Positions 4,686 to 60,918 of a stretch of 64,000 bases of DNA are shown in pieces; the stretch's first letter is position 1; each line of letters begins with the position of its first letter. Source of the stretch: a virus. The position numbers and the translations under genes were made by a program. The notes under the pieces are model-generated. The model was not told the origin of the DNA. It did not search any database and saw nothing but the letters and a program-made list of their open reading frames with translations. The DNA lies in IMG/VR virus record IMGVR_UViG_3300030012_002828, positions 1 through 64,000 of that record; one strand, 5' to 3'.

Positions 4686-5006
4686 ATGTCTTGGGAAGAT
4701 ATTTTAAAAAGAAAAAAGAGCAAAACAAAAAAGCGCAAGCCTAAGAAAAAAGAGGATATGAGAGTAGGTCGAGTTTATCCTTCTGATAGAGCAGGTAAAA
4801 AAATTATGATGCTAACGCATGAAGGTAAAAAAATTCATGCGGGTGCTAAAGGGTATGGTAATTACAAAGGTAAAGGAAAAAATAGAGGCGGAGGAACACA
4901 CACTAACAAAAAGCGTAGGGCTAATTTTAAAGCAAGGCATAATTGCGACCAATGTAAAGGTAGAATTACAACTCCTAAATGTTTAGCGTGTAAAAAATTG
5001 TGGTGA
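4686..5006 (+). CDS. Tagged (MSWEDILK) small basic protein with Cys/His-rich C-terminus
   Basis: KKIHAGAKGYGNY..RRANFKARHNC..CLACKKLW; very Lys/Arg-rich; GGAGG RBS upstream. Confidence 0.8.
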   Translation: MSWEDILKRKKSKTKKRKPKKKEDMRVGRVYPSDRAGKKIMMLTHEGKKIHAGAKGYGNYKGKGKNRGGGTHTNKKRRANFKARHNCDQCKGRITTPKCLACKKLW

Positions 5007-5171: not shown

Positions 5172-6008
5172 ATGTGGCAACTTATTCTTAAGAAAGAATC
5201 TAAATGGGTTAATAATCTTTCTGAGAGTAAGCAAAAATTACTAAATACTAAACCTTCTTTTAATGTAAAATTTCCCGAACTTTCATTTCCCGATAATGAA
5301 AGTGAATTGTCTGAAGTTATGAATATAATGGAAAAATATGAAATGAGTAAAGATGTCGAAAAGGATTTAGACCAAAATAATAATAAAATGATGTTAGATA
5401 TTGTTGGAGAAAATGCAGTAGATTGGGCAGACTTCGTTAAAGATGTAGATATTTATACCATGCAATTAAAAATGAAATACAAAAGACCAAGACCCTATGA
5501 AGTTTCAGATAAAATTAAATCTATAACAGATACTGATGATACACCATCTTTTCCAAGCGGCCACGCTATTGAAGCATATGCTTTAGCAAAAGTCCTCGCA
5601 GAAGAACACCCTGAAAAGGAAGAAGAATTATTTAATATGGCTGAAGCAATTGCTTTATCGAGGGTATTAATGGGTAATCATTTTCCAAGTGATATAGAAG
5701 CAGGTGAAAAAATAGGATTATTAATTGCTGATGCTTATTTAGATACCGATGTTAAAAAATCATGGGAAGACCAATTATCTAAAGGTTGGGTTGATTGTTC
5801 TTCATGTGGTAAAGGGAAAAAGAGAAGACCTTGTGGTAGAAAGGATGCTTCTAAAGGGCAAAAAAGAAGATGCCGACCAACTTGTTCAGCCTGTAAAGAT
5901 TACAAAAGACGAGCAGGTAAAAGAGGAAAGAAAAAGAAAAGAAGAAAAGGCACTTTTAGTTTAGAAGATAAATATGGACTTCACGGTTGGTTCAAAAGGA
6001 GGGGTTGA
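5172..6008 (+). CDS. PAP2-family (acid phosphatase/haloperoxidase superfamily) phosphatase with tag and basic Cys-rich C-terminal module
   Basis: PAP2 motifs KMKYKRPRP, PSFPSGHA and SRVLMGNHFPSD. Start moved to ATG 5172 (MWQLILKK). Internal tag VKK|SWEDQLSK|G. Confidence 0.85.
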   Translation: MWQLILKKESKWVNNLSESKQKLLNTKPSFNVKFPELSFPDNESELSEVMNIMEKYEMSKDVEKDLDQNNNKMMLDIVGENAVDWADFVKDVDIYTMQLKMKYKRPRPYEVSDKIKSITDTDDTPSFPSGHAIEAYALAKVLAEEHPEKEEELFNMAEAIALSRVLMGNHFPSDIEAGEKIGLLIADAYLDTDVKKSWEDQLSKGWVDCSSCGKGKKRRPCGRKDASKGQKRRCRPTCSACKDYKRRAGKRGKKKKRRKGTFSLEDKYGLHGWFKRRG

Positions 6009-6465
6009 TATACCAATAAGAAAGGTGAAAGGCGGCTATAAATGGGGTAAGCGTGGTAAAGTCTATAAAAATCGTAAAGATGCTGAACGGCAAGCGGCTG
6101 CTGCATATGCTTCAGGATATAAAAAATCTGAAGATGTTATTACATGGAAAGATATTCTTAAAGCAAAAAGAATCCCAAGAAAGAAAGGGCAACCTGCTAA
6201 TTCTAAAAAACATTCAGATTTATACACAGATGAAAATCCAAAAGGAACAATACATGGTTTAGGATTTAAAACTGTAAAAGATGCAAAACGCTCAGTAGCA
6301 AAAATAAAAAGAAGTAGTAGAACCCATGCACATAAAACTCAAGCGGCTATCGCTATGGAACAAAGAGCAAGAGAAATGGGTAAAAAAACTGCGGCAGGTA
6401 TTTATAGGACTTTCATTAACGCACAAAAGAGAAAGACTAAAGCAAAAAGGAAGCGTAAAAAATGA
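5974..6465 (+). CDS. Two fused basic modules separated by an internal tag (TWKDILK|A); true start uncertain, possibly ATA 6010
   Basis: Modules PIRKVKGGYKWGKRGKVY..AAYASGY and KHSDLYTDENPKGTIHGLGFK..AMEQRA. Confidence 0.75.
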   Translation: MDFTVGSKGGVDIPIRKVKGGYKWGKRGKVYKNRKDAERQAAAAYASGYKKSEDVITWKDILKAKRIPRKKGQPANSKKHSDLYTDENPKGTIHGLGFKTVKDAKRSVAKIKRSSRTHAHKTQAAIAMEQRAREMGKKTAAGIYRTFINAQKRKTKAKRKRKK

Positions 6466-6587
6466 AAGAATTTACTTATTGTGGTCGCTGTTATGAAACT
6501 GACGATGTTTATCCTTTTGGGTTTTGTAGAAAATGTTGGATTAAACATGGCAAACCTAAAGCGATGAATGGTGATATAGTTGCCTAA
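6462..6587 (+). CDS. 41-aa CxxC-CxxC zinc-finger microprotein (not in ORF track)
   Basis: MKEFTYCGRCYETDDVYPFGFCRKCWIKHGKPKAMNGDIVA*; ATGA overlap with the upstream stop. Confidence 0.65.
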   Translation: MKEFTYCGRCYETDDVYPFGFCRKCWIKHGKPKAMNGDIVA

Positions 6588-6690
6588 TAAAAATAAAGTT
6601 AGAAAGCCAATAAAAAGAAAAAAGGGAGAACCAAGTCAAAAATCTGAAAAGAAAAGACCCAATAAACCAAACTACCCAAGAAAGAGATGA
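6580..6690 (+). CDS. 36-aa Lys/Pro-rich basic peptide (TTG start, not in ORF track)
   Basis: GGTGAT RBS, then TTG: MPNKNKVRKPIKRKKGEPSQKSEKKRPNKPNYPRKR*; fills the gap before 6695. Confidence 0.5.
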   Translation: MPNKNKVRKPIKRKKGEPSQKSEKKRPNKPNYPRKR

Positions 6691-6694
6691 TATT

Positions 6695-7579
6695 ATGCCA
6701 AAATTTTCACCTCGAAGAAATGAATTATTTCAAGTGTCAAGGTATGAATTACCAGATGGTTTAAAAAAACATATTGCTGTTGGTGTACAAAAAATAAAAA
6801 GCGATAGAGATACAAGTTATCCTAATAGTAATTGGGGTTCTGATGAACTAATGGTTATAGAAGGAAATAATCCAATGATACAACAGGGAGGCGGAGATTA
6901 TAGTATAACTTATATTTCTTTTTTTAAACTAAGAAAAGGAGGCGGAGTTTCAATTCCAGTATTAGATAAATTAAGTGTAGATAGAAGATTAACACAAGAT
7001 GCAAAAGGTCTGCTTAAATTTTTTGGATTAACTGATAGGTGGGCATTACCACCAGAAGATGATGAATCTAAATTAGCAGCAGGGCATTTTAGAGTTAATT
7101 TAGAAAGAAATGAAGTAATGGTACAATATGTTACAACATACAATTCATCGTTTATTGTTTTATATATAGGTTTTGAAAGTCCTTTAAAAATTTACGAAGG
7201 GTATAATATGTATAGTGACTTAACGGTTCGTGAATATATTGGTTTAAGATTGCTTTACAAGTCTTTTAAGAATCGCAGAAGAGAATGGAAATTATCAGAT
7301 GCTTGGCGACATTTTTTTAATGAATGGTCAAAAAGCGAAGTTACTGTTAAATTATTAGAAGGGAAGGGTTATTTACGATTTAAAAAAGAAGGTTTTCCAA
7401 GCATTACATCTAAAGGAAAAGCACATTTAGAAAATTTAATAGATAATGTAAATTTTGTTTCATTACAATTTAATGGCCGTGTTTCAGATATATTAAAAAT
7501 GGATTTAAATATAAATTGGAATGCTGAATTAGATAGTAAATTAATGGATGTATTGGAGGAATATTATGGATTGGACTGA
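6695..7579 (+). CDS. Hypothetical protein with possible C-terminal winged helix
   Basis: 294-aa ORF; LLEGKGYL..ITSKGKAHL resembles a wHTH wing. Confidence 0.6.
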   Translation: MPKFSPRRNELFQVSRYELPDGLKKHIAVGVQKIKSDRDTSYPNSNWGSDELMVIEGNNPMIQQGGGDYSITYISFFKLRKGGGVSIPVLDKLSVDRRLTQDAKGLLKFFGLTDRWALPPEDDESKLAAGHFRVNLERNEVMVQYVTTYNSSFIVLYIGFESPLKIYEGYNMYSDLTVREYIGLRLLYKSFKNRRREWKLSDAWRHFFNEWSKSEVTVKLLEGKGYLRFKKEGFPSITSKGKAHLENLIDNVNFVSLQFNGRVSDILKMDLNINWNAELDSKLMDVLEEYYGLD

Positions 7580-21961: not shown

Positions 21962-23342
21962 ACAAGATGAAATTGATGTTGAAGAATTAGAACGAAATGT
22001 TGAAGAAATCAAAAGGGTTAAACAACAACAAGATATGTTAGAAGAATCTGTTAAACCTATTAAGGAAAAACTTAAACAAACATTTGGTAAATCAAATGTA
22101 TCTAAATGGATTACTACACAATATGGAGATGAAGTGGAGATATTAAAAGAAATTTCTAAAACACTAAAAATTAATTTATCTGAAGCAACGAGTTATATTA
22201 CACAACTACCCGTAGAACCAATTGTCGCTGAAAAGAATATTCCTGATTTAGTTAAAGAATTAAGAGGTATGAGAAGAAAATTAAAAGGAGATTCTAAAGA
22301 TAAATTATCTAAAGGGATAGATTATTTAATTACAGCATATGAAAATTATGTTCAGAAAAGTTTAGATTCAATTTATTGGTTAAAGCCGTATCAATCAGGA
22401 TTTAGTAGATTGGGGTATAGCCCATCACATATTCAAAAATTGCATAATATAAAAGACGGAGAAACAAGAACTAAAATTATAGAACTTTGTTGTAAAATGT
22501 GGGAAAGTGATTTAGAAAAGAAAAGTTTGGATTATGGTACAGAATACTCAAAGCATTGTGTTATTTTAAATGAAAGTAAAAAAGAACTAAGAAAAATACT
22601 TAAAGATATTCCGCATCAATCTATTAGAAAGGGTAAAAAAGAAATGATAGAAAAAAGTGTTAAAGAAATTTTATGTAATAATCAAGGCTTATCTTCCAAT
22701 GAAATACATTCAAGGTTATCAGATGGTCATTCTAAAATATCAACACCACAGTCTATTTCTAAAATGTTAATGAAGATAGATGCCACTAAAGTAGATAATG
22801 AATATTATTTAGTTAAACCCTTAATTAAAAAAGATTTATATTCTTATGTAGCAGGTTTTATTGATTCAGATGGTTTTATTACTATGGATTCATCAACAGC
22901 ACCGAGAGTAGGTATGATTGCTACGGGTCAAAGAGGTAAAGCATTTTTTCAAGAATTAGAACAAGAATTAAAATGTGGTAGACTTCACTTAGACCAAAAG
23001 GTAGGAGATAATAATAGAAGCCAACATAGACTAAATTTTTACAGTCAAAATGATATTAGTGCTATATTAGAAAAATGCTTACCACATTTAAGAATGAAGA
23101 AGGCTCAAGGTAAATTAATACAAGAGGCGATTAGAATCAAAAAATATCATAAGAAAACAGATTGGGCAAAACCAAGACTTCAAGAAATATTTAAACTAAT
23201 TAAGTATGAAAATTGGAAAGATTCAAGAGGTCAAGGTGCTAAAGAATTTGAGAAATATGATATAGACCCCGAAGTAGTAGTTAAATACCATGATAATTGT
23301 AAGATGCAATTGATGGATAGTCTTGAAAGTGGGGTGGTTTGA
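21945..23342 (+). CDS. LAGLIDADG endonuclease-family protein with long N-terminal helical/wHTH extension
   Basis: YVAGFIDSDGFI motif and PHLRMKKAQ. Probable start TTG 21945 after GGAGGTG (MVLILKQ..). Confidence 0.85.
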   Translation: MVLILKQDEIDVEELERNVEEIKRVKQQQDMLEESVKPIKEKLKQTFGKSNVSKWITTQYGDEVEILKEISKTLKINLSEATSYITQLPVEPIVAEKNIPDLVKELRGMRRKLKGDSKDKLSKGIDYLITAYENYVQKSLDSIYWLKPYQSGFSRLGYSPSHIQKLHNIKDGETRTKIIELCCKMWESDLEKKSLDYGTEYSKHCVILNESKKELRKILKDIPHQSIRKGKKEMIEKSVKEILCNNQGLSSNEIHSRLSDGHSKISTPQSISKMLMKIDATKVDNEYYLVKPLIKKDLYSYVAGFIDSDGFITMDSSTAPRVGMIATGQRGKAFFQELEQELKCGRLHLDQKVGDNNRSQHRLNFYSQNDISAILEKCLPHLRMKKAQGKLIQEAIRIKKYHKKTDWAKPRLQEIFKLIKYENWKDSRGQGAKEFEKYDIDPEVVVKYHDNCKMQLMDSLESGVV

Positions 23343-24979
23343 TGGGTTTAAGAGATTACTTGGGTAAATTTGTCAGAAGAAGAACACCGACCCCACTTGC
23401 TAAAGAAGTATACAATTTAGGAATACAAGAAAAAAGAAATGTTCAACATATTATTGGGCCTGTTTTATATGATGTTGCTAATCAATCAACAATAGTTAGG
23501 ACTTGTATTACTCAACTAAAGACAGAAATATTTAGAAGAGGTTATGAATGGGAAAAATCGTTTTATAAAATATGTGAAGAATGCGGTACAACACATGAAA
23601 AAGAAACTGATGTTTGTAGAAATTGTAATAGTAATAAATTAAGAAGCCCATCTAACGCACAAATAGAATATGCAAAAAAATTCTTTGAAGGGTATGTTAA
23701 TCGTTCTGAGCAAAAATTTATTGATGTATTAAAAGAATTAGAATCAGATTTAAATATTGCTGATGATGCTTACCTAATATTAGTTAAAGAATATTATTTA
23801 GATAATCAAGGTAATGTAGCATTACATAAAATAAAAGAAATTTATAGAGGCGACCCTTTAACAATGTATATTGATGTTGATGAAGAAGGAGATAGAGGTG
23901 AAGCGCATTACACTTGTGTAACACATAGAGATATTTATGCTGACAATAATGATAGTCCTTGTCCTCATTGTGGTAGTAAATTACAACCTGTTTATTATAT
24001 TAATAGAGTACATGGTAAAGACCAATACTTTGTAGAAGGAGAAGTTATGCATTTAAGTAAGTATAACCCTTCAAGGCTTTATGGCTTTTCACCTATTCTA
24101 ACTCTATGGAGTCATATTACAACATTAATTGCTATGGAAAATTATATCAATACATCTTATACAAAAGCAAGAGCACCAAGAGGTATTCTTGCTGTACAAA
24201 CTAATAACATGGAATCACTTGTAAAATATTGGAAAGGTGTCAAAGAAAAGTTAGAAAAAGACCCACACTATATTCCTATTATGGGTATTGAAACAGATGG
24301 CGGTAGTAAAGGTAGTATTGAATGGGTACAATTTATGAATACTCTAAAAGAAATGGATTACATAAATGTTAAAGATGACCTAAGAGATAGAATAGGTGCT
24401 TTTTATGGTGTAAGCAAAATCTTTCAAGGTGATACTTCAACAAGTGGTGGATTAAATAATGAAGGTATGCAGATTCTTGTAACTAATCGTTCAGTAGAAT
24501 TAGCACAAAATGTATATAATCAATACCTATTTCCATTTTTACTAAAACAGTTTGGTATTACTGACTGGTCACTTAAACTATTGCGTTCAGAAGAAGAAGA
24601 TAATGTAGCCGATTTGAGAAGAAGAGAAATTGAAATTAATCTTGCTACACAAATTAAAAATTTAGGTTTTGAAGTAGATATGGATGAAGACGGTAATTTC
24701 ATATATTCTAAACCACCACCTAAAGAAAAAGATAAACCTATGGATGGCAAATCAGATACTAAATTAGAAACAGACCCATATGCAGGAACAGATATAGATG
24801 CAAGTCAATTAGGACAATTACAAGAACAACAATTATTAGGACAACAGGGCGGTTCTATTGCACCAGAAACAAGAAATAAACCTTCTATGAGTGTTGGGCC
24901 ACCTAAAAGAAATACAGGATTACCAAAAGAAGCAGCAAATAATAATGTTGATAGAAGAACAGAAAGGAGAGTTGGTTAA
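23339..24979 (+). CDS. Portal protein with two Cys-rich (Zn-ribbon-like) insertions
   Basis: Follows terL; portal motifs DLNIADDAY, LYGFSPI, APRGIL, IGAFYGV; CEEC..CRNC and C..H..CPHC. Confidence 0.9.
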   Translation: MMGLRDYLGKFVRRRTPTPLAKEVYNLGIQEKRNVQHIIGPVLYDVANQSTIVRTCITQLKTEIFRRGYEWEKSFYKICEECGTTHEKETDVCRNCNSNKLRSPSNAQIEYAKKFFEGYVNRSEQKFIDVLKELESDLNIADDAYLILVKEYYLDNQGNVALHKIKEIYRGDPLTMYIDVDEEGDRGEAHYTCVTHRDIYADNNDSPCPHCGSKLQPVYYINRVHGKDQYFVEGEVMHLSKYNPSRLYGFSPILTLWSHITTLIAMENYINTSYTKARAPRGILAVQTNNMESLVKYWKGVKEKLEKDPHYIPIMGIETDGGSKGSIEWVQFMNTLKEMDYINVKDDLRDRIGAFYGVSKIFQGDTSTSGGLNNEGMQILVTNRSVELAQNVYNQYLFPFLLKQFGITDWSLKLLRSEEEDNVADLRRREIEINLATQIKNLGFEVDMDEDGNFIYSKPPPKEKDKPMDGKSDTKLETDPYAGTDIDASQLGQLQEQQLLGQQGGSIAPETRNKPSMSVGPPKRNTGLPKEAANNNVDRRTERRVG

Positions 24980-27439: not shown

Positions 27440-27666
27440 GCGAAGAATTAACACTATTATTAAAAGAATTAGTAGAAAGAATAAAGACTTTAGAAACAAC
27501 CGTATACAATGCAGATAATGTATTGCTTAAATCCGGTCTTGTTAAAGTAGACGGAATAAAACCATCAATACAAAGTGCAAGTAGAGTACCAAGTGCTGAT
27601 ACAATAGCAAAAATGGATTGGTCGGAAATAGATGAATTAGTAGTAAGAATGGCAGGTGAACAATAA
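27436..27666 (+). CDS. Small scaffold-like protein
   Basis: Coiled N-terminus; C-terminus MDWSEIDELV resembles the protease C-terminus MSWEEINDLV. Confidence 0.65.
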   Translation: MSEELTLLLKELVERIKTLETTVYNADNVLLKSGLVKVDGIKPSIQSASRVPSADTIAKMDWSEIDELVVRMAGEQ

Positions 27667-28190
27667 TGGAATGGGATGCAAAACAAGAAGTAACTTTTGA
27701 CTATTCAGTACATAGTCATGGGGATGATAGAACAACCGCAGTATTAACACAATTAGTAGAATTAGCAAATTTGCTTTCTAATCATTTAGGAAGTAATATT
27801 GACCCTAATACAAAACCTACAACTCCAAGTCAAAAGAAAGCAGAAAAGGTTGATGTTGTTAGATTAGCAACTGCTAAACCTATTGAACAAACTATTTCTA
27901 AAGGATTTGTTAAAACAAGAAACACCTCAAGAGATTTTACAGGTCGTTCTATTTCTAAAGAAGATGAAGAAGAAATTGAAAATATTTTACCACAAGTAGC
28001 ATTAGTAGCAGGTGGTATGGCTGCAAGTAAAGTAAAAGATGATATAACAAATAAAGCAGACCCTATGAGTACATCTGAAGGAAAGGCTCTATTAGCATCA
28101 TTACAAGAAGCAGCAAATAAACTTAGAAAGTATTTAATGACTACAAGAGTTTCTGCTTCCCAAGCACAAAAGCCTTCTGATATGAGATAG
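27666..28190 (+). CDS. Hypothetical head-module protein
   Basis: Repeated TISK|G, SISK|E and ITNK|A. Confidence 0.65.
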   Translation: MEWDAKQEVTFDYSVHSHGDDRTTAVLTQLVELANLLSNHLGSNIDPNTKPTTPSQKKAEKVDVVRLATAKPIEQTISKGFVKTRNTSRDFTGRSISKEDEEEIENILPQVALVAGGMAASKVKDDITNKADPMSTSEGKALLASLQEAANKLRKYLMTTRVSASQAQKPSDMR

Positions 28191-30749: not shown

Positions 30750-32033
30750 ATGAGTTCTCTTAAGGTTAAACCTATGAGATTAGGTAATCATTATTCAAGT
30801 GGTTCTGAATTTGCCGTACTAAAAGGTACAGGGAAAGATTTAGTTATCGCTGGTTATGCATCTGTTGATGTAGTAGACAAACAAAATGATTTAATTACAT
30901 TGGAAGCATTAAATGATGCGGCTGATAAATTTATGAAGAGTGATTATAAAAATGTAATGATTACTCATTCAAATGTACAAGTAGGAGAAGTAATTGATTC
31001 TTATACAGATACAAAAGGTAACTTGTTAAAAACAGGTTGCGACGATACAGGATTCTTTGTAGTTATAAAAATGAGGAACGATATTGAAAAAGCGAAAGAA
31101 GTAGCAAGAGATATTAAGAGAGGCAAACTTCGTTCATTTAGTATCGGTGGACAGGCTATTAATAAGCATAATGTTCACGACCCCGATATAGGAACATACA
31201 AAGAAATAGATAAATTAGAACTCCATGAGATTACAATTTGTGAAGAAGGAATAAACCCTGAAGCCAAATTTGAAATTGTGAAGGAAAACAAAAATAAAGG
31301 AAGTGAAAAAATGACCGACGAAATTAGTAAAGCATTAAGCGAGTTTGAAGACATTGTAGGCCAACTAAGAAATCAAATTGACAACTCAGTAGTTAAGGAA
31401 GATTTTGATGATGAGCAATCTATGGCAGAACCCGAAATGATGAGTGAAGAAGAAATGATGCCCGAAAAAGTAGATGATGAAGAAGATTTGTCATATAAGG
31501 CTGAATCAGTTGATGATGAAGAAGATATGGATGAAACAAAAGAAAAGAAAGCAGCAGATTCTATTGTTTATGGGCACAATGCAACAGGACAAAAAATGGG
31601 CGAAAGTAATCTAACAGGAAGATTTGATTCTGAATTTAGTGAATTTATTGCTCGTAAATCAGCAACACTTGATACACTTGACCTAAGTGAAGAAAATGTA
31701 GCAAAGGCATATGCACAATTTAAGGCTGAACAAGAAGAAGCAAGAGCATATGATTTGATTAAGAATGAATTTGAAGCAAGATACAATGCTGAACTAAAGA
31801 TGGAAGCAGACATGATTGCTAAAGAAAACTATGACGCAAGTGCTGAAGTTGCTGCTCTAAAAAATGAGTTTGCACAACTTCGCAAATCTCTTGAATCAAA
31901 TAATGAAGTAATTGCAAAGCAAGTTACTCAAGCAACCTCAAGACTATCTGATGATGTAATTTCAAAGATGGACAATATTGGTGAAATGTCTTGGGAAGAA
32001 ATTAATGACCTTGTTAATGAGGTACAAGGCTAA
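30750..32033 (+). CDS. HK97-type prohead protease fused to an acidic scaffolding domain
   Basis: IAGYAS..VDKQND, catalytic-type H (THSNVQVG) and S (SFSIGG), LHEITI..NPEA; acidic coiled C-terminal half. Confidence 0.93.
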   Translation: MSSLKVKPMRLGNHYSSGSEFAVLKGTGKDLVIAGYASVDVVDKQNDLITLEALNDAADKFMKSDYKNVMITHSNVQVGEVIDSYTDTKGNLLKTGCDDTGFFVVIKMRNDIEKAKEVARDIKRGKLRSFSIGGQAINKHNVHDPDIGTYKEIDKLELHEITICEEGINPEAKFEIVKENKNKGSEKMTDEISKALSEFEDIVGQLRNQIDNSVVKEDFDDEQSMAEPEMMSEEEMMPEKVDDEEDLSYKAESVDDEEDMDETKEKKAADSIVYGHNATGQKMGESNLTGRFDSEFSEFIARKSATLDTLDLSEENVAKAYAQFKAEQEEARAYDLIKNEFEARYNAELKMEADMIAKENYDASAEVAALKNEFAQLRKSLESNNEVIAKQVTQATSRLSDDVISKMDNIGEMSWEEINDLVNEVQG

Positions 32034-32068
32034 TCCTAATAAGGATTAAAAAAAAGGAAGTGAAAAAT

Positions 32069-33370
32069 ATGAGTTTAAAAATTAGAACAATAGCAGATTT
32101 AGAAAGAGCAACATACGGTTCTTTTGGTGGAAACAGTCTTATTAAGGCAAGTACAGGACAAACAGGTGGAGTAGGAGTTACAAGAGGTATTCATTCGGAT
32201 TCTAACTCAGGTGCTTTTAGCCCTAATGCTCTATACAATTTGGTTTATGGTCAAAAAGTTTGGTCTATGCTAAACCGTGAAATTAATGCATTCGCTATGC
32301 TACCTAAAAAGCCATATCAGTCAAGCGGCTGGAGAGTCATGATTGAAAGAGCAATTGGTGGTCAAGGTGATATTCTTAATATTGCAGGTGGAACAAATCA
32401 AGGTTCTCTAACAGAAGATTTGATTGGTGGTGTTGAAGAAAACGCTTCATTTACTACTAATGATGCAACAGCATTTGCCCCAATTGCACCAAAGTATGAA
32501 ACACTTTATGTTTCTCCTAAAACAATAGCACATCAATTTGAAGTTTCTGAATTGGCTGCTGCTATGGCAAAGATTGATGATGGAATTGGTGATATTATGG
32601 CCGCTTATAGAGAAGAAGTTGGTGTAACCCACGCTGAAATGATGAATCATATGCTTCTAACTCCATTGGAATCTAAGACTAATGGTTCAGGTACTTATGT
32701 AGGTGCAAATAATATTAAATCTCTTTATGAAATTGTAACAAGTAAGGCAGAATTGGAAGCGGCTGATGGTGGAAATCTATTTGCAGGTGCGCTACCAACA
32801 GAAATGAAGACTCTATATGGAAAAGATAGAACAAATGCTGCTAATAATACTTGGATGGATGCTTTTGTAGATTCTTCTGCTGATGCAACAACAAGAAGAC
32901 CACTAACTCTTAACTTGCTAAATACTGCTCTAAGAGAATTGCAAATTCGTGGTGCTTCACCAAAGGTTATTCTAACAGGATATGATACAATTCAAGCATT
33001 GGGAGAACTTCTACAATCTCAAGAAAGATTCATGGGAAGAACCGAAGTACTACCAACAGTAAATGGTATTAAAGGTGTAAAGGGTAGAGAAGTTGGATTT
33101 AAGGTTGCTACTTATCATGACATTCCTATTATTCCTTGTAAGGAAATGGGAAGCACAGGAACAGGTGCTGGATTGAGTGATATTTTCATTCTTGATACTG
33201 ACCATTTGCACTTTGCTACTTTGAAGCCAACAGAATATTTTGAAACCGGTATTGATTCGGGTGACCCATTTTCAGTAAATGGTCTACGAAACAAGGGTAT
33301 GTATCGTACCATTGGTGAAGTTGTTTGTACATATTTGAAAGCACAAGGAAAGATTACTAACCTATCTTGA
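32069..33370 (+). CDS. Major capsid protein (HK97 fold)
   Basis: Follows the protease; motifs SGWRV, PKTIAHQFEVS, VATYHDIPII, IFILDTDHL and QGKITNL typical of archaeal tailed-virus MCPs. Confidence 0.9.
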   Translation: MSLKIRTIADLERATYGSFGGNSLIKASTGQTGGVGVTRGIHSDSNSGAFSPNALYNLVYGQKVWSMLNREINAFAMLPKKPYQSSGWRVMIERAIGGQGDILNIAGGTNQGSLTEDLIGGVEENASFTTNDATAFAPIAPKYETLYVSPKTIAHQFEVSELAAAMAKIDDGIGDIMAAYREEVGVTHAEMMNHMLLTPLESKTNGSGTYVGANNIKSLYEIVTSKAELEAADGGNLFAGALPTEMKTLYGKDRTNAANNTWMDAFVDSSADATTRRPLTLNLLNTALRELQIRGASPKVILTGYDTIQALGELLQSQERFMGRTEVLPTVNGIKGVKGREVGFKVATYHDIPIIPCKEMGSTGTGAGLSDIFILDTDHLHFATLKPTEYFETGIDSGDPFSVNGLRNKGMYRTIGEVVCTYLKAQGKITNLS

Positions 33371-58716: not shown

Positions 58717-60235
58717 CTTTTTCCACCTTTAATTTTACATATGTCTGCGTTTTTCGCACTTCTTCAAAAATATGTTTTACACTTTGCCAATGACGATAAA
58801 ATTTATTTCTTCCACATTGTTCATTCTTTCTAAAAGACTCAATCATTAACTTCTTATCTACCCAACCATTAGTGCCATTAACTTTAACTTTGGGGTTTGT
58901 TGAGTTATAAGCAGCGATATACATTTTTTCATTATTTTTATCCGAGAATCTTTTTGGTCTCTTTTTTAGTTTTTCTGTAAACCAACTTGTTATTGAGTCA
59001 AAAGATTCGTCTGTTAATTGCCTCCCTTGTTTAATATGTTTAGCAGTTATCTTTGGACTTCTTTCTGAAATTGCACATAAAGCGGCCGCAATACATATGT
59101 TATTAATCATGTTCATAAGGAAGGTATTTAACGCTTCGTATATGGAATCATCAAAAGTATTCATATATTTTTTCATTCCACGCCATACATTCTTTAATGC
59201 TTTTTGACCATCTTCAGTCCATACTACAACTTTTCTTTTATCACCATCAACTGTATCTAATCTTTCTTGAACCCATCTATAAGTATTATAAAGCATCTCA
59301 GAAAATTCTTCATGATAAACTGCCGAGCCATCTTCGTCTTCTAAAATTTCTCCAACCATATCAATATAGTCTTCTTCCATTTGTGCTCTTAAAGATTCAG
59401 GAACATCTCTAACATAAAGCCACATTCTTTGAAATACACCTTTTGTTAGAATAACTTTTTCTAATCCTTCAGGTGGTAATGTTGTAGCCCATAAACTTCT
59501 TTGTGAATCAACAATTAAATCTTTACCCCATTCAGTTAGTCTTTTCTTAATTAGATGACTCTTAGAATCTAAACGATTCATAAACTTTTGAAATAACATA
59601 ACGGTTTCTTGCTTGTGTTGTGACTCCTTAAAAATACCAGAATGTTCAAACTCATCAAAGGCAATAATACCACTTCCGTATAAACTACCATAAATTGTTT
59701 TATCTTCAAACTCAGGTATATCGTAATCATCATCTTCTCTTGCATCTTGTCTATTATAGTCAGGATTAGGAACATTCATTTTCATAGTGCCTAATAGTGC
59801 TTGGTCAGTAAAACTATCAGGGTTATTCAATGTAAATTGTTTAACACCCGATAGTGGTAAATTATTTCTTGTTGTTGGGTAAGAATTAATTAATTCAAAG
59901 GTTCTTTCCCATACAGGTTGCAAGAAATCAAACATTGTTGTTTTACCACTTCTTGAAGTTTGAATCCAACAATAGTGTATTCTTGGGTCTAACGCTAATC
60001 TACCAATTGGAACTCTTACTATATCTTTTAATATCTGCCCTAAAGATACAAAATAAGACATCTTTGCCGAATAATCATTGTATAGTGAAAACTCACCTAC
60101 TACATTTTTCCATCTTATAACATCTTTAGGTAATTCAATTTTCTTTGAGCGTATAACTTCTAAACTACTATCATCAGTAACCTTAATCATCGCTTCATAT
60201 AATTCCCATTCATCTACATTTAAATCTTCTGCCAT
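58709..60235 (-). CDS. P-loop AAA+ ATPase, probable divergent MCM-like replicative helicase
   Basis: Walker A TSRSGKTT, Walker B IAFDEFE, arginine-finger-like GVFQR, C-terminal wHTH-like region. Confidence 0.65.
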   Translation of the reverse strand: MAEDLNVDEWELYEAMIKVTDDSSLEVIRSKKIELPKDVIRWKNVVGEFSLYNDYSAKMSYFVSLGQILKDIVRVPIGRLALDPRIHYCWIQTSRSGKTTMFDFLQPVWERTFELINSYPTTRNNLPLSGVKQFTLNNPDSFTDQALLGTMKMNVPNPDYNRQDAREDDDYDIPEFEDKTIYGSLYGSGIIAFDEFEHSGIFKESQHKQETVMLFQKFMNRLDSKSHLIKKRLTEWGKDLIVDSQRSLWATTLPPEGLEKVILTKGVFQRMWLYVRDVPESLRAQMEEDYIDMVGEILEDEDGSAVYHEEFSEMLYNTYRWVQERLDTVDGDKRKVVVWTEDGQKALKNVWRGMKKYMNTFDDSIYEALNTFLMNMINNICIAAALCAISERSPKITAKHIKQGRQLTDESFDSITSWFTEKLKKRPKRFSDKNNEKMYIAAYNSTNPKVKVNGTNGWVDKKLMIESFRKNEQCGRNKFYRHWQSVKHIFEEVRKTQTYVKLKVEKDE

Positions 60236-60918
60236 TAATAACTCACCTCTTTTTCCGAATTTAATGCCTTTAGAATATGGTATGCGGTTTTATTACCAAT
60301 TCCTTTTATCTTAGTTATATCTTGAATATCGGCCATTGATATTTCTGCAATACTTCCAAAGGACTTTAATAGGGCTTTTGCTTTTTCTACTGAAACACCC
60401 TTTATTTCAGATAGCACATCTACTCTTACATCGTCTGTTCTTATTTTTTTTGGTAATTCTTTGTGTATAATTAATTCTTTATCTATATGTTCTGTTGTTG
60501 CTAATATTAAATGAGCCGCAGTTCTATAACTATCTACCCATATAGGTTTAACATCTGTATGTAGGGCAATAGAAGTTATAGCACCTACAAACATTTTCTT
60601 TAGTTTAGTTCTCCAACTCATTGAATTATAATTTGTTCTATGTAAATATTCTAATGCATCGTCTAATGTTCCGTATATTAATATTATATTTTTATTATAT
60701 GTCCTATCCATATTATCTAATTGATTAAATAATCTTTTATTTCTTACAGATTGTAAAAAGTCTGCGGCTGACTTTGCTTCTATACAACAATCACCTACAA
60801 TATAATCTCCAATCTCTAACCATTTCTTTTCTGTTTTAATTTTTGCTTTATTTGCTATTGTTTCTAATGTTCTACTTAGTTGTGAATCTTCTCTACTATC
60901 AATAATTATCATGACCAT
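60235..60918 (-). CDS. ERCC4/XPF (Hef-like) structure-specific nuclease with HhH motifs
   Basis: IIDSRE, GDY, IEAKSAADF, RLFNQ; C-terminal IKGVS and IKGIG HhH motifs. Confidence 0.9.
   Translation of the reverse strand: MVMIIIDSREDSQLSRTLETIANKAKIKTEKKWLEIGDYIVGDCCIEAKSAADFLQSVRNKRLFNQLDNMDRTYNKNIILIYGTLDDALEYLHRTNYNSMSWRTKLKKMFVGAITSIALHTDVKPIWVDSYRTAAHLILATTEHIDKELIIHKELPKKIRTDDVRVDVLSEIKGVSVEKAKALLKSFGSIAEISMADIQDITKIKGIGNKTAYHILKALNSEKEVSY

Follow-up and report, generated by a model that had tools for sequence, protein, structure and literature searches.

The protease-scaffold gene of an uncultured virus of marine archaea ends in a short predicted helix that begins at a tryptophan (the W-helix, within positions 31986-32033). 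With a probability of roughly 0.6 we read this helix as the last one of a C-terminal helix-turn-helix of about 27 residues, which serves as the procapsid-docking tail of magrovirus head-assembly proteins. The gene lies in the window analysed here, a stretch of 64 kb (positions 1 to 64,000; 30% guanine plus cytosine (GC)) out of the 93,843-bp virus record IMGVR_UViG_3300030012_002828. Three products would carry the tail: the S78 protease-scaffold of 427 amino acids (aa), a 240-aa scaffold that starts at the internal Met188 of the same gene, and a 76-aa mini-scaffold encoded elsewhere in the head module (Table 1). The original prediction held that the W-helix binds the capsid protein and that an N-terminal tag, M-S-W-E-D-I-L-K in gene 4686, mimics or derives from it. 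Its first part gains indirect support from conservation, the predicted helix-turn-helix, the nested start and the mini-scaffold, but its second part is unsupported: the likeness of tag and helix in this genome is best read as coincidence combined with a generic grammar of helix starts.

The virus matches the magroviruses, tailed viruses of marine Poseidoniales archaea. This assignment by gene content and relatedness is based on an ATP-dependent ligase gene and a LAGLIDADG gene within the structural module, on relatives from marine samples that are about 95 kb long and on haloviruses as the nearest cultured relatives, and it fits the magroviruses of groups A/B described by Philosof et al. (2017; PMC5434244). 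Magroviruses rank among the most abundant archaeal viruses of the surface ocean; none has been cultured, and their head assembly is known by analogy only. The magrovirus literature that was searched mentions neither a scaffold protein nor an N-terminal motif.

The protease-scaffold gene ends at 32033 with ...GEMSWEEINDLVNEVQG and the stop codon TAA, and its product ends in the peptide G-E-M-S-W-E-E-I-N-D-L-V-N-E-V-Q-G. The motif [ED]-[LM]-[ST]-W-x-[EQ]-[IVL]-x-x-[LMF] terminates 118 of the 120 closest homologs, and Trp415 is invariant in an alignment of 35 diverse sequences; the consensus of the W-helix is [ML]-[STD]-W-x-[EDQ]-[IVL]-[NHED]-x-[LMF]. In other magrovirus groups the scaffold terminus reads [AE]-[KEN]-M-[DST]-W-[SGND]-[DE]-[IV]-[HN]-x-[LMF], and the 50%-cluster representatives keep the motif down to 34-40% identity, one of them with Tyr in place of Trp. 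AlphaFold2 (AF2) predicts a helix at residues 401-408, a turn and a second helix at residues 415-426, with predicted local distance difference test (pLDDT) values of 77-84 across the last ~27 residues. In this model Ser414-Trp-Glu-Glu417 reads as a helix N-capping box. The W-helix is amphipathic and mostly acidic, with Trp followed by Ile or Val at +3, Leu or Met at +6 and Val at +7, and the first helix holds a D-x-I-[AS]-K-M motif that is common to scaffold and mini-scaffold. The homolog alignments and the predicted helix 415-426 both place a conserved amphipathic helix at the extreme C-terminus of the scaffold.

The N-terminal part of the protein is a prohead protease. Its residues 29-180 score 41.8 bits against Pfam PF04586 (cut-off 21), which exceeds the curated threshold of the family model for MEROPS S78, and PF14550 matches as well. 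The protease-scaffold has 3,859 homologs, the top 120 of them at 57% identity or above, and halovirus homologs of the protease domain carry the annotation prohead protease. In the 35-sequence alignment His73 and Ser129/Ser131 are invariant and are candidate catalytic residues.

Just past the Pfam protease domain lies Met188, which is also invariant in the 35 diverse homologs. The 15 nucleotides (nt) directly 5' of it, AAAGGAAGTGAAAAA, are found identically upstream of the capsid gene (32053-32067, with the capsid ATG at 32069), and no Shine-Dalgarno sequence is visible at the protease's own start. Nearly all relatives checked, with 30-54% GC, have a Shine-Dalgarno sequence of the GGTGA, AGGTG or GGAGG type 3-9 nt 5' of Met188. 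The residues encoded there vary among relatives (K-G-S-E-K, K-G-D-K, T-G-D-E-K, K-V-N-N and others), and since the Shine-Dalgarno sequence is kept where the encoded residues differ, this points to selection on the nucleotides themselves. Two representative homologs (P0125 and P0137) begin exactly at the equivalent of Met188, as gene calls and not as proteins. As in lambda C/Nu3, an in-frame internal start with its own ribosome-binding site stands immediately past the protease domain. A nested scaffold gene from which translation would begin at Met188 is likely on these signals. Since the strong Shine-Dalgarno sequence is identical to that of the capsid gene, the nested scaffold would probably be made in excess over the protease.

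The tail is not confined to this gene. When a scaffold-helix profile of 14 columns was run over the window, the only other match was the C-terminus of the mini-scaffold (10.6 bits; next best 4.5 bits), a protein that is kept in every lineage examined and that contains D-x-I-A-K-M plus a Trp helix, as the scaffold does. Comparison of the mini-scaffold with the scaffold family by hhalign aligned the C-termini, over the last 52-62 residues of the scaffold, with E values of 3e-4 and 8.8e-5. A homolog of the mini-scaffold was found in a distant lineage (probability 92.5%), and in one magrovirus group the scaffold end is almost identical to the mini-scaffold end. In the AF2 model the mini-scaffold has a helix at its N-terminus, followed by a disordered linker and a helix-turn-helix, and its Trp falls in the first turn of the final helix, as it does in the scaffold. 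The alignments suggest that the mini-scaffold is paralogous to the last ~60 residues of the scaffold. Both helices also track each other within genomes: W-S-E-I-H-K-M-V is present in scaffold and mini-scaffold of the same genome (G029), and His at +4 occurs in both proteins in 5 of 7 His-type genomes versus 0 of 14 others (permutation p = 0.002 for 21 unique pairs and 0.066 for 14 scaffold types). Such tracking fits a common partner.

To our knowledge, the well-studied systems (lambda, HK97 protease, P22, phi29, 80alpha and herpesviruses) all have their contact to the capsid protein at the very C-terminal end of the scaffold or protease, and oligomerisation maps to more N-terminal helices. By analogy, the W-helix would most likely pack on the inner face or the N-arm of the capsid protein, and docking of the tail would recruit the protease and the scaffolds to the interior of the procapsid, which is what the scaffold tails of lambda, herpesvirus, P22 and 80alpha do. 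A role of the W-helix as capsid-binding element is plausible and is better grounded by the nested scaffold and the tracking mini-scaffold paralog; the support that it has from the conservation, the nested-start signals, the paralogy and the predicted secondary structure is indirect.

The closest arrangement is that of lambda gpC/gpNu3 and herpesvirus UL26/UL26.5, which likewise have an internal in-frame start just past the protease domain and a scaffold that shares the C-terminus of the protease. In these systems as in the magrovirus the shared tail is the presumed contact to the capsid protein, and an internal start with a stronger ribosome-binding site implies more scaffold than protease. 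In contrast to these systems, the magrovirus infects archaea, its protease is of the S78 (HK97 gp4) type and not of the herpesvirus assemblin type, its scaffold part has no sequence similarity to theirs, and its internal start is read from conservation of the Shine-Dalgarno sequence and the ATG only. A second precedent is phage 80alpha, in which the last 16 residues of the scaffold form an amphipathic helix and a hook beside the N-arm of the capsid protein, together with SaPI1 CpmB (72 aa), a protein that binds the capsid protein through a copy of the 80alpha scaffold tail (PMC5644958). The magrovirus shares with this pair the short amphipathic helix that ends the scaffold, and the second protein of ~70-80 aa with an N-terminal helix and a homologous tail. 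However, CpmB is satellite-encoded and competes with the scaffold of the helper phage to change capsid size, whereas the mini-scaffold is encoded by the virus itself and conserved in all lineages examined, and the magrovirus tail has an acidic Trp helix instead of the RIIK hook. P22 gp8 resembles the magrovirus protein in that a long helical scaffold ends in a helix-turn-helix, which in the magrovirus is predicted. The C-terminal domain of gp8 is basic, and its binding partner in the coat N-arm is an acidic residue. The magrovirus tail, in contrast, is mostly acidic and matches gp8 neither in sequence nor by Foldseek. Homology to a characterised scaffold tail was found neither by Foldseek of the mini-scaffold model against the PDB nor as a RIIK-type motif, and the relation to known scaffold tails is one of mechanism and not of family membership. 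The feature follows known head-assembly logic, here in an abundant uncultured group of archaeal viruses, and it provides a testable scheme for magrovirus head assembly with a protease and a nested scaffold that have one tail, and a conserved mini-scaffold that has the same tail.

The helix-turn-helix could instead mediate oligomerisation, by linking scaffold, protease and mini-scaffold to each other or to the portal within the assembling core, which we consider unlikely. The tracking of both helices within genomes would be expected if they were packed together, both proteins otherwise consist of coiled-coil-like helices, and the mini-scaffold gene sits between the portal and protease genes. 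However, the co-variation goes towards identical and not towards complementary residues, and in known systems it is the contact to the capsid protein that the extreme C-terminus makes, among them 80alpha (PMC5644958).

Several points weigh against the assignment as a procapsid-docking tail. Firstly, the AF2 model of the full-length protease-scaffold is poor (mean pLDDT 47), and its C-terminal secondary structure alone was used; the model of the mini-scaffold is moderate (pLDDT 68) and had no structural match in the PDB search. Secondly, the support from hhalign for paralogy is moderate (probability 40-60%), and the co-variation of scaffold and mini-scaffold is confounded by phylogeny and could also result from gene conversion or mutual binding. 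Thirdly, the halovirus HVTV-1, the nearest cultured relative, has an acidic protease extension but no Trp helix, which means that no experimental system carries the motif. Lastly, as described below, the scaffold site of this genome ranks high under the tag profile, and a real link to the tag could lie behind this. The HVTV-1 prohead protease gp119 (L216, locus 5518-7431) has 637 aa in total, with a long and extremely acidic C-terminal extension; since it ends without a Trp helix, its docking solution would differ.

The tag with which the W-helix had been compared is real and is selected at the protein level. Gene 4686 is one of ~15 tagged genes, which lie at roughly 93.0 kb to 17.4 kb of the genome. 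Eight low-GC genomes contain 95-108 tags, 8-25 per genome, with the consensus M-[STN]-W-[EK]-[DN]-I-L-K. The Ser is encoded by AGT, TCT or TCA and is sometimes replaced by Thr, about one quarter of the tags read M-W... with nothing between Met and Trp, and position +6 is mostly occupied by small residues (A/N/S/G). Tagged genes adjoin the head module and are located inside it in some groups.

The 14-nt match on which the original prediction was built is borne out, as ATGTCTTGGGAAGA occurs exactly at 4686 and 31986 only and gene 4686 indeed starts with MSWEDILK. Allowing up to 2 mismatches gives 4 sites versus 0.48 expected, a number reached in 0 of 100 shuffles. Nevertheless, the identity of the DNA tells no more than the shared peptide does, since with the codon bias of this genome (31% of Ser as TCT, 93% of Glu as GAA) the probability of a 14-nt identity given M-S-W-E-[DE] is ~0.29. 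Other tags of the window encode Ser by AGT or TCA, the sequences 5' of both ATGs are unrelated, and many close relatives have Leu (TTA/TTG/CTA) in the scaffold in place of the window's Met. The peptide likeness is limited to M-S-W-E-[DE]-I; at L+4 and K+5, the best-conserved positions of the tag apart from Trp, the scaffold has N and D.

That the tag mimics or descends from the C-terminal helix of the scaffold, and docks in the same pocket of the capsid protein in the manner of encapsulin targeting peptides, seems to us quite improbable, even though several observations are in its favour. Six residues agree in this genome (M-S-W-E-[DE]-I), scaffolds conserve M/L at -2 and S/T/D at -1, and in one group the scaffold sequence W-S-[DE]-I-H-K has the tag's Lys at +5. 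The tagged genes stand beside or within the head module, and CpmB is a precedent for mimicry of a scaffold tail (PMC5644958). The scaffold Trp motif is also kept in tag-bearing relatives, as the original prediction expected: it is present in 4 of 4 complete records and in 19 of 19 records with a scaffold homolog (the other 6 of the 25 tag-bearing records are fragments).

Comparison across the family does not bear the mimicry out. The scaffold-helix profile scores no tag in the window. Conversely, when tag profiles were built per dialect (see below) and the non-tag Trp sites were ranked in ten genomes, the tags had a median of 19-21 bits and the scaffold Trp sites scored between -11 and +4.5 bits. 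The scaffold site does show a mild and consistent enrichment among the Trp sites of low-GC genomes (top 1-13%): ranked with all non-tag Trp sites of its genome, it falls in the top 1.3% here and in the top 3.8-12.9% for the seven other genomes of low GC; in two higher-GC genomes it ranks at 42% and 94%. The window is the most tag-like of the ten genomes, and such an extreme position points to a selection effect, as expected if this case was chosen for looking good.

The conserved positions do not correspond either. The L+4 and K+5 that are nearly fixed in the tag correspond to polar or variable positions of the helix, and the conserved E+2, L+6 and V+7 of the helix have no counterpart in tags. 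The net charge of the tags is ~0 to +2, and that of most helices is -1 to -4. Co-variation of the tag consensus with the scaffold terminus across viruses was looked for and was found in neither direction. Among low-GC groups the helix varies (I-N-D-L-V, I-H-K-M-V, I-H-N-L-A, V-H-S-L-V) and the tag stays W-x-x-I-L-K; in a higher-GC lineage the tag dialect differs, and scaffold and mini-scaffold are still M-S-W-[ED]-E-[VI]-H. The grammar common to both consists of a small N-cap residue, Trp, acidity at +2 and hydrophobicity at +3, features that might appear wherever a helix begins with Trp in its first turn. The quarter of the tags that begin with M-W also speak against mimicry. In a more specific form, the Trp and the hydrophobic +3 residue of the tag may enter the pocket of the capsid protein that also receives the Trp helix of scaffold and mini-scaffold. 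In this way 10-25 fast-evolving proteins per genome would be brought into the capsid, and cleavage after Lys would later remove the tag. We give this little chance; if true, partial mimicry of the tail would constitute a virus-encoded, encapsulin-like cargo system.

Models for the tag are the T4 capsid targeting sequence (CTS) and the encapsulin cargo-loading peptides, in which a short terminal peptide is shared by unrelated proteins encoded beside head genes. These models do not require that the tag copies the scaffold tail, and the magrovirus tag does not copy it. The search for the tag's partner should not be limited to the docking site of the scaffold.

The second dialect of the tag, [PA]-[FM]-[DE]-x-A-W-x-h-L-K, occurs in a lineage with 44-54% GC (G033, G034; L295-L306), for example at G034 3929, 4654, 6242 and 6775 (minus strand). 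Its Trp stands 4-8 residues from Met, and the spacing from Trp to Lys is one residue shorter. The dialects are unmixed, as 0 of 18 second-dialect sites fit the low-GC spacing and 0 of 108 low-GC tags fit that of the second dialect. A pattern search and a scan of M-(x)-W starts had made the P0129 lineage, which has the Trp helix, appear tag-less; this was rejected when 3-mer counts revealed the second dialect there. The two dialects are a natural handle for finding the partner of the tag by co-variation.

Tag and tail could also be linked without mimicry, if the tag binds scaffold or mini-scaffold, like the T4 targeting sequences on the scaffolding core, or if the head protease recognises both. 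Small residues after the tag, together with tags inside open reading frames (ORFs) without a Met, would fit a recognition or cleavage site, an h-h-K-M string lies upstream of the scaffold's W-helix, and the tagged genes cluster with head genes. We nevertheless regard such a link as very doubtful, since scaffold and mini-scaffold are similar across both dialects and no surface of a partner was found to change along with the tag.

Tag-like W-x-x-I-L-K strings within ORFs without a Met are found in the window at 6139 (I-T-W-K-D-I-L-K), 11844, ~5760 and ~10550, and also in ORFs of three other genomes (G001, G004 and G005; for example T-N-W-Q-N-I-L-K and N-S-W-Q-S-I-L-K). They point to gene fusions, or to recognition of the motif at internal sites as well, such as cleavage there. 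The string M-S-W-R-T-K-L-K-K at residue ~101 of a replication-side protein with a nuclease-like N-terminus (60235-60918, minus strand), kept in G001 and G002 and in variant form in G004, looks like a tag-like string that arose in an unrelated protein and cautions on matches to short motifs. The only literature matches to the tag string, frog dermaseptins (A-L-W-K-D-I-L-K...), were taken as a coincidence of amphipathic helices and not as homology. In the tagged protein at 5172-6008 a PAP2-superfamily phosphatase domain (55.8 bits) is combined with a tail that is rich in Cys and very basic, and several other tagged proteins likewise end in basic or zinc-ribbon-like tails. The idea that this PAP2-like protein is a membrane protein, which might have argued against cargo, was rejected as it has no predicted membrane helix.

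Table 1. Coordinates of the features discussed, in positions of the window.
Feature	Position	Strand	Remarks
N-terminal tag MSWEDILK of gene 4686	4686..4709	+	compared element
Portal	23339-24979		head module
Post-portal protein, 743 aa	25208-27439		head module
Mini-scaffold, 76 aa	27436..27666	+	head module, between portal and protease genes; N-terminal helix, disordered linker, C-terminal helix-turn-helix (profile, hhalign, AF2)
W62 helix of mini-scaffold	27619-27651	+	
174-aa protein	27666-28190		directly after mini-scaffold gene
837-aa protein			head module; contains ATP-dependent ligase domain
Protease-scaffold gene, 427 aa	30750..32033	+	S78 prohead protease domain (residues 29-180), acidic linker, helical scaffold region
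Internal ribosome-binding context AAAGGAAGTGAAAAA	31296..31310	+	directly 5' of Met188
Probable nested scaffold gene, Met188-Gly427, 240 aa	31311..32033	+	co-terminal with protease; conserved start signals
First helix of C-terminal helix-turn-helix, residues 401-408 (D-D-V-I-S-K-M-D)	31950..31973	+	AF2; motif shared with mini-scaffold
M413-S-W...G427 and stop codon	31986..32033	+	last helix of protease-scaffold, conserved motif
W-helix proper, residues 415-426, Ser414 as N-cap	31992-32027	+	AF2
Major capsid protein (HK97 fold, SU10-like, no delta domain)	32069..33370	+	putative docking partner

The capsid protein, the putative docking partner of the tail, scores 43.3 bits against Pfam PF17236 (cut-off 24.1). 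The 174-aa protein encoded after the mini-scaffold begins with M-E-W-D-A-K-Q, possibly a decayed tag, and the gene at the same position in other groups has a canonical tag. The C-terminal ~95 aa of the 743-aa protein (residues ~648-743) correspond to a free-standing tagged protein of 106-118 aa in other groups (G023 36183, G030 15747, G015 15270), with 44-49% identity; the fused version lacks the Trp, but an I-I-K string is still present at its junction. In the higher-GC lineage, five adjacent small genes (G033 90862-92302, minus strand) start with M-I-D-T-D-K-Y-E-G-H and form a separate paralogous family that is unrelated to the Trp tag.

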